A stretch of 64,000 bases of DNA from an uncultured Candidatus Saccharibacteria bacterium (GTDB lineage: Bacteria; Patescibacteriota; Saccharimonadia; Saccharimonadales; JAGQNJ01). A model generated the notes under the pieces. That model saw only the letters and a program-made list of their open reading frames with translations. It was not told the origin of the DNA and ran no database searches. Positions 8,427-53,797 of this stretch are shown one piece after another (position 1 is the first letter of the stretch; every line of letters starts with the position of its first letter). The translations under genes and the position numbers were made by a program. The stretch lies in assembly GCA_964491925.1 (NCBI GenBank), contig CAZBGZ010000002.1, positions 113,492 through 177,491 of the forward strand. Direction: 5' to 3'.

Positions 8427-9653
8427 ATGCCTTTGCATCGTCCCATAATTGACCGAGTCCTATATACTCTAAAGTTGATGAGTAAAACTATATGCATACT
8501 TGGTCGCCAACCATCACTGGGATTAGCAGAGTTAGAGAGTTTGCTGGGGGCAGATATTATCCGAGTAATCAACCCAGATGTTGCCCTGCTGGACGTCGAT
8601 CCTGAAGCTATGCCATTTTCGAGATTAGGAGGCACAGTAAAAATAGCAAAATTGATTTACGAGTTCCCGGAAGCTGAATGGAAAGAAGTTCGATTATACC
8701 TCGAGAAAACAGTCCCGAATCATTTAGATAGTGTGCCTGAGGGCAAGTTTACTCTGGGGCTTAGTGCGTACGGTCTTAACGTTAGTCCAAAACAACTGCT
8801 CGCGACTGGTCTCAGTATAAAAAAATCAGTCAAAACAGCAATTGGTCGTTCGATTCGACTAATTCCAAATAAAGATCCTGCTCTGAATAGTGCTCAGGTG
8901 ATCCACAATAAGTTAACATCGCCGAGCGGTTGGGAGTTGATTTTCGTAAAATCTGGAAATAAAATTTTGATGGGTCAAACAAAAAAAGAGCAAGATATTG
9001 AAGCCTACACCGCCAGAGACCAAAAAAGGCCTAAGCGCGATTCGGTTGTGGGTATGTTGCCGCCAAAACTAGCTCAGATAATAATTAATCTAGCAAATCC
9101 AGCCGAAAGTTCTACTATACTGGATCCGTTTTGTGGCACTGGTGTTATTTTGCAAGAAGCCCAGATTATGGGGTATAACAGCATTGGCACAGATATAGAG
9201 CCCCGAATGGTGGAATATGCCCAAGAAAATTTGGGCTGGTTGCAAAAATTTGTTAATAACCCCTCCTTGCAAGCTTCCCTAGAGGTTGCCGATGCTACTA
9301 ACCATACATGGACGCAAAGTTTTTCCAGTATCGCTTGCGAGACCTATTTAGGACGCCCCTTTTCACACGTTCCAGACACAAAAACGCTAGAAAAAGTCAT
9401 GCAAGATGTTCATTTGATTCACAAAAAGTTTCTTTCGAATATTGCCTCACAGACCAAAACAGGTTTTCGAATGACAATAGCCGTGCCAGCCTGGAAAATA
9501 AAACAAGGTTTTATTCACCTTAAAACCCTTGATTCTCTCGAGGAATTGGGGTATACTCGTATAAGTTTTGTTCATGCGAGCAATAAAGATTTGATTTATC
9601 ACCGCGAGGGCCAAATTGTTGGTCGCGAGTTAGTCACAATAGTAAGGAAATAA
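8427..9653 (+). CDS. UPF0020/Trm11-like SAM-dependent methyltransferase (putative RNA methylase)
   Basis: 408 aa. Motif I 'ILDPFCGTGVILQEA', then 'GTDIEPRMVEYAQENL' and 'VADATN'. Motif IV looks atypical ('IACETYLGRPF'). The alternative start ATG 8478 (MSKTICILG) is plausible. Confidence 0.6.
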   Translation: MPLHRPIIDRVLYTLKLMSKTICILGRQPSLGLAELESLLGADIIRVINPDVALLDVDPEAMPFSRLGGTVKIAKLIYEFPEAEWKEVRLYLEKTVPNHLDSVPEGKFTLGLSAYGLNVSPKQLLATGLSIKKSVKTAIGRSIRLIPNKDPALNSAQVIHNKLTSPSGWELIFVKSGNKILMGQTKKEQDIEAYTARDQKRPKRDSVVGMLPPKLAQIIINLANPAESSTILDPFCGTGVILQEAQIMGYNSIGTDIEPRMVEYAQENLGWLQKFVNNPSLQASLEVADATNHTWTQSFSSIACETYLGRPFSHVPDTKTLEKVMQDVHLIHKKFLSNIASQTKTGFRMTIAVPAWKIKQGFIHLKTLDSLEELGYTRISFVHASNKDLIYHREGQIVGRELVTIVRK

Positions 9654-24444: not shown

Positions 24445-25074
24445 TTATCTTTTTCCAACTTTTTCTATTGCACCAAGAAGATCATTAGGTTTCTGTATCA
24501 ATACATCCGGGCCGGATGCTTTTAATATTTTTTCTCCGTTAAACCCCCAGGCTACAGAAATGATTGGGATGCCTAGTTTTTTGGAAGCATCAATGTCTCG
24601 CACTTCGTCACCAACATACAGGCAGTCGGCTTTATCTATTTTTTTCACTTTTAAAAACTTCTTTAGGGCGCTAGTTTTACTAAATAATCCAATGCCGCCT
24701 TGTACGTCACCGAAACAATCTGATAGCTCGTTCCTCTTCAGGAATGACCTAATATTGCCCTCGCTATTAGAACTGAGAACGTATAGCATGTAGCCCTCAT
24801 TTTTTATCGCTTTAATCTCATTGCCCAAGCCTGGAATAATTTTTAGTTCATCCATGCGTTGTTTTATCATCGTCCGCCCTTTGACTACTAGTCGCAAAAT
24901 CCGACTATAAGGTATCCCGCTTTCTTTTAGCACCGCCCGCATCGGCAGGTTTCGTAGTCGCATTTTCTCTGATTCTGAAAGATTCAGGGGCCCCAATAGT
25001 TGCTCGGCAATTTCAATAACTAGCGGTAAACTGTCAGCCAACGTGCCATCAAAATCAAAAATTATATGCCTCAT
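24445..25074 (-). CDS. HAD-superfamily hydrolase (phosphoglycolate-phosphatase-like)
   Basis: 209 aa. Motif I 'IIFDFDGTLADS', motif II 'VLSSNS' and motif IV 'YVGDEVRDIDA'. Confidence 0.8.
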   Translation of the reverse strand: MRHIIFDFDGTLADSLPLVIEIAEQLLGPLNLSESEKMRLRNLPMRAVLKESGIPYSRILRLVVKGRTMIKQRMDELKIIPGLGNEIKAIKNEGYMLYVLSSNSEGNIRSFLKRNELSDCFGDVQGGIGLFSKTSALKKFLKVKKIDKADCLYVGDEVRDIDASKKLGIPIISVAWGFNGEKILKASGPDVLIQKPNDLLGAIEKVGKR

Positions 25075-25192
25075 CTCAGTTTTATTTTACTACAAAAGGG
25101 GTAATCTAGAGAGAACAAAAGCTCACCCGGCCTTAGGCTAGTTAGAAGATAAAGTGAAGCGCGCAAATATCCCACTACAATTTGCATGTTTA

Positions 25193-25311
25193 GGCCGTAA
25201 TAGAGTAGTAAGATGCGCGGCGACAGCGAGTATCGTAAATTGGACGTACTTTCGGTACGTCCAATGCGAAACACAGCTGACAACAAAGCAGATTGCTGCT
25301 CTATTACGGCC
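25193..25311 (-). repeat. structured GC-rich intergenic element, copy A (13-bp terminal inverted repeats, internal hairpins); homologous to 53669-53797
   Basis: GGCCGTAATAGAG (25193-25205) is the exact reverse complement of CTCTATTACGGCC (25299-25311). There is an internal perfect 10-bp hairpin, TTGGACGTAC/tttcg/GTACGTCCAA (25240-25264). The 3' arm overlaps the heliorhodopsin stop codon (25304-25306). The strand is assigned from the flanking transcription direction. Confidence 0.55.
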
Positions 25312-26113
25312 GTAATGCGCCGAAGAAGACTTGCCACGCAAGTGCCGACTTAGCAACCAGGCTCAGAATCATATAAACACGCTCGCCATACAAATACTCT
25401 GCCCACTTGCCTTTTCGCTTGTACTGCAAATACATATTTATTGCAAAACAGTTAAAGAACAAGAATAGGCTGCCGTAAATAAAGTATACGAATGTTGGAA
25501 TTTGCCCACTACCATACACATTTGCCCCCCAGAAATAAATTCCTATAACAATCCAAGGTACAATACCAGCCTTGCTACCCAGAATGAAACTTAGCCAATT
25601 AACCTTTTTAGACTTGCCATTCCAAGACTCCATTAGTAACCCTGTGCCATTCATTATTGCCGTAAGCATAAATATCATCAGTAAACTGGATAAGTCATAA
25701 ATGCCTGACAGCATCGCAATTGCGATCATCATGGTGCTTGCACTAAATGCATACTCTATCCAACGAACCTTATTTATGTGGTTTTTAAGATTTTTCTCGT
25801 AGGATTTTCGCAGTTTTGTGGCAACCAGTGCATGTGCAATTGCTGACATAAAAAAGAAAGCCGCTACTATATATGCCAGGTTCACATCAAACAAATTTTG
25901 AGTTGCTGGGACTAATTGTGGCTGCCCCGCGGAAGAACTAAGAGTATCTAGCGTGATAAAATTTGTACTTACCGGGAAGGTTGCAGCTTTTGCTAGCAAG
26001 ACTACTGCGATACCCTGCACAGCGTGTAGTATGGCCAGAGTTACGTTCCATTTATGAAGGCTTTCAAATGAAATTTTTTGTTTTTTCTTCAATGATATTG
26101 ATTGTTTTTTCAT
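25304..26113 (-). CDS. heliorhodopsin
   Basis: 269 aa with 7 hydrophobic helices. By-eye alignment to heliorhodopsin 48C12 as I remember it gives 'RWIEYAFSASTMM' (48C12 'RWVEYSLSSSVMI'), 'GIVPWI' and 'SLFLFFNCFAINMYLQYKRKGKWAEYLYGERVYMILSLVAKSALAWQVFFGALRP', near-identical to the 48C12 C-terminus. The Schiff-base Lys is in 'SLVAKSA'. Confidence 0.85.
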   Translation of the reverse strand: MKKQSISLKKKQKISFESLHKWNVTLAILHAVQGIAVVLLAKAATFPVSTNFITLDTLSSSAGQPQLVPATQNLFDVNLAYIVAAFFFMSAIAHALVATKLRKSYEKNLKNHINKVRWIEYAFSASTMMIAIAMLSGIYDLSSLLMIFMLTAIMNGTGLLMESWNGKSKKVNWLSFILGSKAGIVPWIVIGIYFWGANVYGSGQIPTFVYFIYGSLFLFFNCFAINMYLQYKRKGKWAEYLYGERVYMILSLVAKSALAWQVFFGALRP

Positions 26114-53092: not shown

Positions 53093-53300
53093 ACTCTTTC
53101 TCCTTAGAAATATAAAAATCACCTCGAAAGGATTTGTCTGGATCCCTAATAGGGAGGTACCATCCAGATTCCTTCAAGGTGATTTCCTTAAAAGCACTCG
53201 TTTGTCAGCTGTTTCGGGCTTACCCGGTGGGTTCTAATCGACCAGTCAGATCTTTCTTCCCACTCCTCGCAGTTGATAGCTGCTACTAACGGACTAACTA
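53093..53300 (-). promoter_or_regulatory. T-box riboswitch leader of ileS (Ile specifier AUC candidate, intrinsic terminator)
   Basis: On the minus strand the T-box core is 'AAUCUGGAUGGUACCUCCC' (plus 53152-53170). The terminator arms are 'AAATCACCTTGAAGGAATCTGGAT' (53162-53185) and 'ATCCAGACAAATCCTTTCGAGGTGATTT' followed by a TTTTTAT run (arm plus run, 53112-53143). A hairpin 'GCAG-CUAUCAA-CUGC' (53269-53283) displays AUC followed by A. The candidate promoter is TAGACT-17-TATAGT (53331-53303). Confidence 0.7.
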
Positions 53301-53668: not shown

Positions 53669-53797
53669 CCCTAGGGACACATAGGTAGGCAGAGTGCGCG
53701 ACACGGCCGAAGTACGCAATAGAGATGTACATACAATACATTGACCGCGTACAAGAGGCCCTACAACAATGCAGTCTATCGCCTATGTTTCCCTAGG
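53669..53797 (-). repeat. structured GC-rich intergenic element, copy B; homologous to 25193-25311
   Basis: CCCTAGGGACACATAGG (53669-53685) pairs with CCTATGTTTCCCTAGG (53782-53797) with one mismatch. A nested hairpin has GTACGC (53712-53717) pairing with GCGTAC (53747-53752), enclosing ATGTA/TACAT. The 3' arm overlaps the nrdJ stop (53793-53795). It shares 'tag..a.(a/g)tgcgcg' and 'acaacaa(a/t)gcag' plus a 7-nt spacer with copy A. Confidence 0.55.

Follow-up and report, generated by a model that had tools for sequence, protein, structure and literature searches.

Hairpin elements behind heliorhodopsin and nrdJ

The window, i.e. the whole stretch of DNA analysed, is 64 kb of Saccharibacteria DNA, and carries two imperfect hairpins of 119 and 128 nt, denoted copy A and copy B, at the ends of the genes for heliorhodopsin and for the B12-dependent ribonucleotide reductase NrdJ. 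Two other copies, C and D, were identified in a contig from a relative of Desulfovibrio. All four copies lie on the strand of the upstream open reading frame (ORF), which sets the sense orientation of the elements, and 0–3 nt from its stop codon; in copies A and B the stop codon is inside the stem. The features of the two loci of the window are the following.

25193-25311, minus strand: copy A, 119-nt imperfect hairpin element (sequence read, fold and covariance-model score)
25299-25311, minus strand: 5' arm of the terminal stem of copy A, GGCCGTAATAGAG, holding the final codons of heliorhodopsin and its TAA stop
25193-25205, minus strand: 3' arm of the terminal stem of copy A, CTCTATTACGGCC, exact reverse complement of 25299-25311
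25280-25296, minus strand: conserved 5' sub-terminal block of copy A, GCAATCTGCTTTGTTGT; copy C is identical over the last 15 nt
25208-25222, minus strand: conserved 3' sub-terminal block of copy A, CGCCGCGCATCTTAC; the 15-mer is identical in copy C
25240-25264, minus strand: apical 10-bp hairpin of copy A, TTGGACGTAC-tttcg-GTACGTCCAA, with a TCGTA/TGCGA extension
25287-25300: small hairpin of copy A, AGCAG-caat-CTGCT
25303-25316, no strand: perfect 14-bp palindrome ATTACGGCCGTAAT at the gene/element junction, holding the heliorhodopsin TAA (25304-25306, minus strand)
25304-26113, minus strand: heliorhodopsin ORF, 269 aa, stop codon within copy A (PF18761 in syntenic loci; 6,337 homologues found)
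24445-25074, minus strand: HAD hydrolase, the next gene after heliorhodopsin (annotation of syntenic loci)
53670-53797, minus strand: copy B, 128-nt imperfect hairpin, with the nrdJ TAG stop (53793-53795) in the 5' arm
53763-53774, minus strand: 5' block of copy B, CTGCATTGTTGT, corresponding to the 5' block of copy A
53691-53702, minus strand: 3' block of copy B, GTCGCGCACTCT, corresponding to the 3' block of copy A
53793-56570, minus strand: nrdJ, B12-dependent ribonucleotide reductase, 925 aa, stop codon within copy B

The terminal stem of copy A measures 13 bp, and is formed by the pairing of residues 25193-25205 with residues 25299-25311; in the gene-sense reading, the heliorhodopsin stop codon sits within the 5' arm of the hairpin. 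The terminal pairing, the apical hairpin, the small hairpin and the 14-bp palindrome including the TAA stop had all been noticed in the preliminary description of this DNA, and were found again on re-reading the sequence. The loop-proximal GTAC...GTAC pairs of the apical hairpin are either invariant or covarying over seven sequences. The end of the 3' arm, ACGGCCT, is common to copies C and D. The palindrome ATTACGGCCGTAAT and the 3' arm of copy A give rise to a 9-nt direct repeat, ATTACGGCC.

As RNA, copy A folds at -54 kcal/mol in the sense and at -66 kcal/mol in the antisense orientation (z = -6.7 and -9.8, respectively). The folds of copies A and B beat those of shuffled sequences on either strand (z from -5.4 to -9.8; none of 200 shuffles was as good), and both copies are likewise far better folded than shuffles when DNA folding parameters are used. 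The GC content of the element, 47–51% vs 42% in the window, is only mildly elevated for what had been described as GC-rich.

A second copy of the same architecture had been placed on the nrdJ stop codon at 53669-53797; it exists, but spans 53670-53797, and is one base shorter. The view of a repeated multi-helix hairpin element abutting stop codons, the gene sense being the minus strand, stands. Copies A and B score 137.9 and 101.7 bits with covariance model R1, and 130.4 and 99.8 bits with model R2, values that are partly circular because both copies are in the seed alignments of both models. When the two copies are globally aligned in the same gene-sense orientation, z is 6.0 over dinucleotide shuffles, and none of 500 shuffles reaches the score; with copy B inverted relative to copy A, the alignment is at the shuffle mean (z = 0.1). 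Judged by these alignments, the homology of copies A and B holds in a single orientation. They share the sub-terminal blocks CTGC(T/A)TTGTTGT and GTCGC(C)GCGCA, which are not reverse complements of each other, and differ wholly in the terminal stems (GGCCGTAATAGAG vs CCTAGGGAAACATAGG). A three-block pattern derived from the A/B blocks matches copies A and B alone in the window, with 0.00 matches expected.

No third copy was found in the window by model R1 with filters off. The next-best match (53103-53194, 15.5 bits) corresponds to a hairpin of the ileS leader, where an inverted repeat with 26-nt arms, 77% complementary, is found just upstream of the start of isoleucyl-tRNA synthetase (53116-53185); this is probably an unrelated leader hairpin, matching the element model weakly and no Rfam family. 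Nothing comparable is seen at most of the other gene ends of the window, and stop-codon-spanning hairpins are therefore no general habit of this genome. A small glutaredoxin/NrdH-like ORF is located 160 nt downstream of nrdJ. At the opposite side of nrdJ, a strong hairpin (GGGGCTGCCTCAAG...CTTGAGGGAGCTGTCCCC) is found immediately past the stop codon of nrdR, within the spacer between nrdR and nrdJ (56571-56698), which is 90% identical in the relative L089, above the conservation of four-fold sites.

Filled and empty sites in relatives, and two copies in a Desulfovibrio-like contig

Relatives were fetched through homologues of heliorhodopsin and nrdJ. Copy A is present in L001 to L004, which have a 96% identical heliorhodopsin, and absent in L005 (88%, 76-nt spacer), L113 and L114 (83%, 3 and 41 nt), and L006 (80%, 42 nt). 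Copy B is present in L089 (nrdJ 98% identical), and absent in L092 (82%, 40-nt spacer); it is also missing from 12 further Saccharibacteria loci, where canonical terminators or unrelated hairpins occupy the nrdJ-nrdH spacer. The empty-site relatives are 80–88% identical at the protein level, and are too distant for exact insertion boundaries. Members of the family have been gained and lost between related genomes. Copy A is 0.72–0.74 identical between the window and L001/L003, vs 0.59–0.60 for the four-fold sites of heliorhodopsin; copy B is 0.81 identical between the window and L089, vs 0.72 for the four-fold sites of nrdJ. These figures, along with presence in the close relatives, indicate vertical inheritance since the split of the latter, and change somewhat slower than that of synonymous sites.

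Palindromes of other types were seen in the nrdJ-nrdH spacers, such as nearly perfect arms of ~23 bp in L013, a ~75-nt hairpin 3 nt past the stop codon in L036, and a long-stem terminator in L016, and this position seems prone to acquire palindromes. L005 features a 13-bp hairpin over the heliorhodopsin stop codon (CCCATAGAGCTTT...AAAGCTCTATGGG), which has ATAGAGC/GCTCTAT in common with the base of copy A, and a loop in which, judged by eye, 8 of 12 positions agree with the 5' block. It may tentatively be viewed as the remnant of an internally deleted element.

The left end of copy A overlaps the gene. All 120 heliorhodopsin homologues listed end with (R/Q)P* (LRP in 119, LQP in one), and the CGG CCG TAA (Arg-Pro-stop) at the left end of copy A is therefore native coding sequence; in L006, which lacks copy A, the same end reads CGG CCG TAG. 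The GGCCGT of copy A sits at the usual distance of the family from the 5' block. Speculatively, recombination at a site like the element's own end would account for this native GGCCGT.

The surroundings of copy A vary in other respects. A segment of ~57–66 nt after the element (25133-25195) is missing in the 96% relative L001, and is a second small indel abutting copy A; it is bounded by TTAGGC, a direct repeat of 6 nt (25133-25138 and 25190-25195 on the plus strand). The HAD hydrolase gene (24445-25074) is itself an indel, as none is found at that place in L006, L113 and L114, and two are found in L005. A PD-(D/E)XK nuclease gene directly follows heliorhodopsin in L006 and L114; in L113, an HD-domain gene on the opposite strand lies in between.

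One metagenome collection was scanned with the three-block pattern. The 13 stretches retrieved, about as many as expected by chance according to our estimate, comprise 11 chance matches inside genes or terminators, L089 again, and one new member, L099, which is part of L109 (JGI contig Ga0180007_10000287, 90 kb). The host of L109 is a Desulfovibrio relative, its arylesterase being 81% identical to that of D. ferrophilus. Genes in L109 have a GC content of 64–75% (about 64–70% for the contig), the element of 45–47%. Two copies reside in L109.

L109 7054-7176, minus strand: copy C, 123-nt hairpin, 3 nt past the TAG of an FtsX-type permease gene
L109 11854-12080, minus strand: copy D, 227 nt, 1 nt past the TAG of a MarC gene

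Copy C was detected with 47.3 bits (E = 2e-8) by a model built without it. It shares with copy A the exact 15-mers AATCTGCTTTGTTGT and CGCCGCGCATCTTAC, and the ends GGCCGT...ACGGCCT at the same spacing. The corresponding site is empty in L111, an 85% relative, where 19 nt separate the same convergent genes. An island beside a tRNA gene at L109 1699-5452, ~1.6–5.4 kb from copy C, comprises genes for an integrase, an AlpA-like protein and an AAA_25/HTH protein; the island and copy C are separated by two conserved genes.

Copy D owes its length of 227 nt to two extra internal segments of ~55 nt, which pair with each other. It was a marginal match in the R2 search (25.5 bits, E = 0.038), and R2 run on L109 with filters off recovered copy C and not copy D; its membership therefore rests mainly on the sequence ends. 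A 26-nt 5' end pattern derived from C and D, CAGGCCGTTGAAAAAYGGYAATCTGC, has two matches in L109, vs 0.00 expected, and the 5' ends of the two copies differ at the two pyrimidine (Y) positions of the pattern alone. The 3' end of copy D is the same as that of copy C (...GCATCT..CC.TTTTTGAACGGCCTGC). As to the terminal inverted repeats, which are conserved between copies, CAGGCCGTTGAAAAA...TTTTTGAACGGCCTG is common to C and D, and GGCCGT...ACGGCCT recurs in copy A with unchanged spacing; the ends of copy B differ. Copy D is preceded by the stop codon of MarC and followed by a canonical terminator, which is bidirectional.

The family occurs in two phyla, being found in a Saccharibacteria genome and in a Desulfovibrio-like bacterium. 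Model R2, applied to fetched loci totalling 1.8 Mb (12 Saccharibacteria nrdJ loci and ~60 Actinomycetota loci among them), detected copies A, B, C and D alone. Random intergenic placement would be expected to give four positions of this kind, at stop codons and in one polarity, with negligible probability.

The element matches none of the known families searched. At gathering thresholds, Rfam 15 gave no match in the whole window, and in L109 a tRNA and nothing else; at E<=10, copies A and B and the region of copy D gave noise or terminator-like fragments alone. This agrees with the preliminary description, in which the element was not recognized as any named RNA family. No tRNA or tmRNA genes were found in the window. 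No real match was obtained by blastn against plasmid, phage and E. coli collections, nor for copy D against 5,426 E. coli genomes, and three scans of viral contigs gave chance matches alone. Nothing emerged from a look-up of clusters of spurious ORFs, used as a proxy for further copies, and full-text literature searches turned up nothing pertinent on the motif sequences or on such elements in Saccharibacteria. Possible resemblances to the nick region of MOBQ oriT, the dif/Xer site, the terminal repeat of IS26, the signal recognition particle (SRP) RNA and domain V of group II introns were dropped, since the matching bases are not conserved across members.

A coding role was also rejected. The upstream frame is open past the stop codon(s) in copies A, B and C (25193-25303 and 53670-53792 in the window, and L109 7054-7179), and the 5' block lies in the same frame (NLLCC, RLHCC and NLLCC, respectively). 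The peptides are not conserved, two tandem stops are found in copy A, and copy D has in-frame stops; the open frame is therefore regarded as incidental.

Maintenance of base pairing

Pairs were counted in a seven-sequence alignment fitted to the model structure, which has 37 consensus pairs. Comparing copy A in the window and in L003, 26 of the 37 pairs are unchanged, 8 are changed on both sides and still paired, and no window pair is lost in L003. In the family alignment, 88% of the cells are standard pairs, vs 73% when partners are shuffled among sequences (none of 500 shuffles reached the observed value) and 26–39% when partners are slid by 1–3 columns; changes on both sides occur in 22 of the 37 pairs. 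Counts from an alignment fitted in this way lean towards the model structure and are somewhat inflated, yet the control with slid partners and the comparison of the copy A orthologues are still clear. Pairing is maintained by compensatory substitutions. Further copies and covariation, the lack of which would have spoken against the preliminary description, have both been found. Since pairing is maintained below the neutral rate of change, the hairpin matters either to the host or to the element.

Maintained pairing does not tell RNA from DNA, because a palindrome pairs on both strands. Counts of G-U vs A-C mismatches revealed no consistent strand bias. A sense-strand U-G pair, at columns 38/106, is invariant in all seven sequences.

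Relation to known repeats and nature of the family

Enterobacterial repetitive intergenic consensus (ERIC) sequences, or intergenic repeat units (IRU), are one term of comparison, known from reviews, having a 127-bp enterobacterial consensus and the RU/YPAL elements as relatives. Like the family described here, they are imperfect palindromes of ~125 nt, which form one long hairpin, are non-coding, reside at transcribed intergenic sites near ORF ends, and are present or absent in related genomes; ERICs are thought to act on mRNA stability. They differ in having no sequence similarity to the family (copy D, blastn against the E. coli collection) and in being hosted by other phyla. ERIC is not defined by the strict stop-codon contact and the single polarity that are traits of this family.

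Correia elements, or Neisseria miniature insertion sequences (NEMIS), and other bacterial MITEs (miniature inverted-repeat transposable elements) of the IS630/Tc1 type, which has a TA duplication, are similar in featuring terminal inverted repeats, conserved ends and a variable or deleted centre (123 nt in copy C, 227 nt in copy D). Insertion polymorphism is another common trait, and Correia hairpins are co-transcribed. In contrast to these repeats, copies C and D are flanked by no TA or other duplication, copy B alone being readable as a TA duplication; no parent insertion sequence was found, the copy number is apparently low, and the ends are not conserved in copy B.

Repetitive extragenic palindromic (REP) sequences, with the bacterial interspersed mosaic elements (BIMEs) and REPINs, are also extragenic palindromes found just downstream of stop codons, and the hairpins of REPINs measure ~100 nt. 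REP units of 20–40 nt bear a GTAG or CGTC tag and form inverted doublets. REPs stabilise the upstream mRNA, and can, when located near a stop codon, disturb the termination of translation. The family lacks a conserved GTAG or CGTC tag, as the GTAG on the plus strand of copies A and B is GTGC in the L003 orthologue. Its two blocks are not inverted copies of each other, no gene for a REP-associated tyrosine transposase (RAYT) was seen in the sampled DNA, and REP families are species-specific, whereas this family crosses phyla. Integron attC sites resemble the family as imperfect palindromes of 57–141 nt, which directly follow, and in many cases overlap, the upstream stop codon, have a fixed polarity and unpaired or extrahelical bases, and show little conservation of the stem. 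The R''/R' core sites of attC are missing from the ends, which read GGCCGTAAT/ATTACGGCC, CCTAGGGA/TCCCTAGG and CAGGCCGTT/AACGGCCTG; no integron integrase was found in the window, and there is no cassette array, the flanking genes being core genes in conserved synteny.

The architecture of the family can be summarised as ends CAGGCCGTT...AACGGCCTG in the best-preserved copies, the non-complementary blocks AATCTGCTTTGTTGT and CGCCGCGCATCTTAC, and a variable centre. We consider it somewhat more probable than not that copies A and B have diverged within one family, so far undescribed, of imperfect palindromes of ~120–227 nt, with no room for a gene, which is MITE-like, has spread horizontally, and is co-transcribed as a 3' untranslated region (3'-UTR) stem-loop. 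A mobile element of MITE, ERIC or Correia type is suggested by the conserved ends and the centre of variable length, the filled and empty sites, the foreign composition in the Desulfovibrio-like genome, and the lack of room for a gene. Of the three options of the preliminary description, a MITE-like insertion has the most direct support, from the empty sites, the identical ends of C and D, and the low GC content in a high-GC genome.

The family would spread as non-autonomous mobile DNA, entering at or just past stop codons, possibly at sites resembling the GGCCGT end of the element itself. Co-transcription with the upstream gene is likely, because the element comes after the stop codon and ahead of any promoter or terminator that follows. 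By analogy with REP, ERIC and Correia repeats, the large 3'-UTR stem-loop may stop 3'-to-5' exonucleases, insulate the upstream ORF from the downstream gene, or both; such a function is the most economical one, and is established for REP and proposed for the ERIC and Correia repeats. A mobilising enzyme or an RNA-binding protein may have its binding site in the conserved unpaired blocks. Another of the options, a 3'-UTR RNA, is compatible with the compensatory changes, the fixed polarity and the location of copy D between stop codon and terminator, and probably describes how the element acts.

Several observations weigh against a MITE-like, co-transcribed family. Two Pfam scans (five of the scanned ORFs have no Pfam match) and the Pfam tables available for syntenic loci show no evident transposase or integrase for the window, and neither an autonomous parent element nor a parent insertion sequence was found. 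Each sampled stretch (64 and 17 kb) contains two copies and gives no sign of a high copy number. The left end of copy A is native coding sequence, which a simple insertion model would not predict, and the ends of copy B are unlike those of A, C and D. No target-site duplication is found in C or D. Direct repeats of 9 and 7 nt flank copies A and B, respectively, and are uninformative, since they belong to palindromes. For copy B, a TA duplication within the TAG stop is one possible reading, TTCC-TA-[GGGAAACATAGG...CCTATGTGTCCC]-TA-GGGCTC, which would leave the stop codon intact; copy A does not fit this scheme. The lean of the pair counts towards the model structure has to be added. The better-folding strand is inconsistent, being the antisense strand in A and C and the sense strand in B, so that action as RNA on the sense strand is at most putative.

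Other explanations account for part of these data. It is unlikely that the element is a non-mobile structured RNA, cis-acting or derived from the 3'-UTR, which binds an RNase or a chaperone or yields a small RNA from the mRNA 3' end, its patchiness resulting from repeated loss and rare gene-linked transfer. Such an RNA would fit the strong covariation, the conserved and largely unpaired blocks, the polarity to the upstream ORF fixed in all four loci, the evolution slower than that of synonymous sites, and the invariant sense-strand U-G pair. However, the upstream genes (heliorhodopsin, nrdJ, the FtsX-type permease and MarC) are unrelated and suggest no common regulatory logic, a low-GC element in a genome of ~64–70% GC points to recent import, and the identical ends and variable centre of C and D are a transposon-like architecture; A and C fold better in antisense, and Rfam has no match. 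A role at the DNA level, in which the palindrome is extruded as a single-stranded hairpin or cruciform and serves as a substrate for recombination or nicking (as in attC sites, an HUH/Y1 end of the type found in the IS200/IS605 palindrome-associated transposable elements (PATEs), or an IS110-type target), or as a site for a nucleoid protein, is quite improbable. Here the better folding of A and C on the non-coding strand, DNA parameters included, is accommodated, and so is the lack of target-site duplications in C and D, known from HUH, IS110 and site-specific systems. The fixed orientation could reflect a replication-strand bias, because nearly all neighbouring genes are co-oriented; the native GGCCGT at the left end of copy A is expected if the target must resemble the element end, and attC sites likewise abut stop codons, in one polarity and with variable length. 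Against this role, no RYYYAAC/GTTRRRY core sites are found at the ends by inspection, and neither the window nor the syntenic loci showed a gene for an integron integrase, a Y1 transposase or a RAYT. The flanking genes are core genes in conserved synteny rather than cassettes, and the ends of IS200/IS605 elements are two short separate hairpins, not one of 120 nt.

It is highly improbable that the copies are ordinary terminators evolved independently, or functionless decaying relics, with a fortuitous similarity between A and B. The elements are indeed downstream of genes, the nrdJ-nrdH spacer of other Saccharibacteria hosts unrelated hairpins or canonical terminators, and copy A of the L001 type is followed by UAUUUCU. 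Yet no T-run follows any of the four copies, the 3' flanks being TAAACATG (A), GCTCACAA (B), GCAATGAC (C) and GCGCAAGG (D), a terminator scan detected no intrinsic terminator at the copy A or copy B locus, and a separate canonical terminator is found after copy D. The similarity of A and B (z = 6) is orientation-specific, exact 15-mers are shared across phyla, and compensatory changes contrast with neutral decay. The terminator reading, one of those entertained in the preliminary description, is essentially excluded.

Going beyond a MITE-like family, it is conceivable, though doubtful, that these repeats represent a new class of mobile structured element, which targets stop codons, or the nucleotides right behind them, in one polarity, may insert by recombination at a short sequence like its own GGCCGT end and so leave the upstream protein unchanged, is selected as a portable 3'-UTR module, and moves between phyla (Saccharibacteria and Desulfovibrionales). 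REP, ERIC, Correia and MITE repeats are known, and are normally lineage-specific and loosely placed relative to genes. The family is set apart from them by four independent insertions in two phyla, all touching a stop codon in one polarity and with the upstream proteins intact, and by the compensatory maintenance of pairing at a rate of change below the synonymous one. If confirmed on whole genomes and transcriptomes, it would be a tractable case of a horizontally spreading 3'-UTR module, with a possible new targeting rule for a non-autonomous element, and, to our knowledge, one of the earliest repeat families to be reported from Saccharibacteria, whose very small genomes are poor in repeats. 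As a caution for annotation, long hairpins overlapping stop codons in these genomes should be taken neither as terminators nor as riboswitch-like regulators.

Elsewhere in the window, a lone plus-strand gene with DNA methyltransferase domains (N6_N4_Mtase, UPF0020) is found at 8427-9653, among housekeeping genes on the minus strand.

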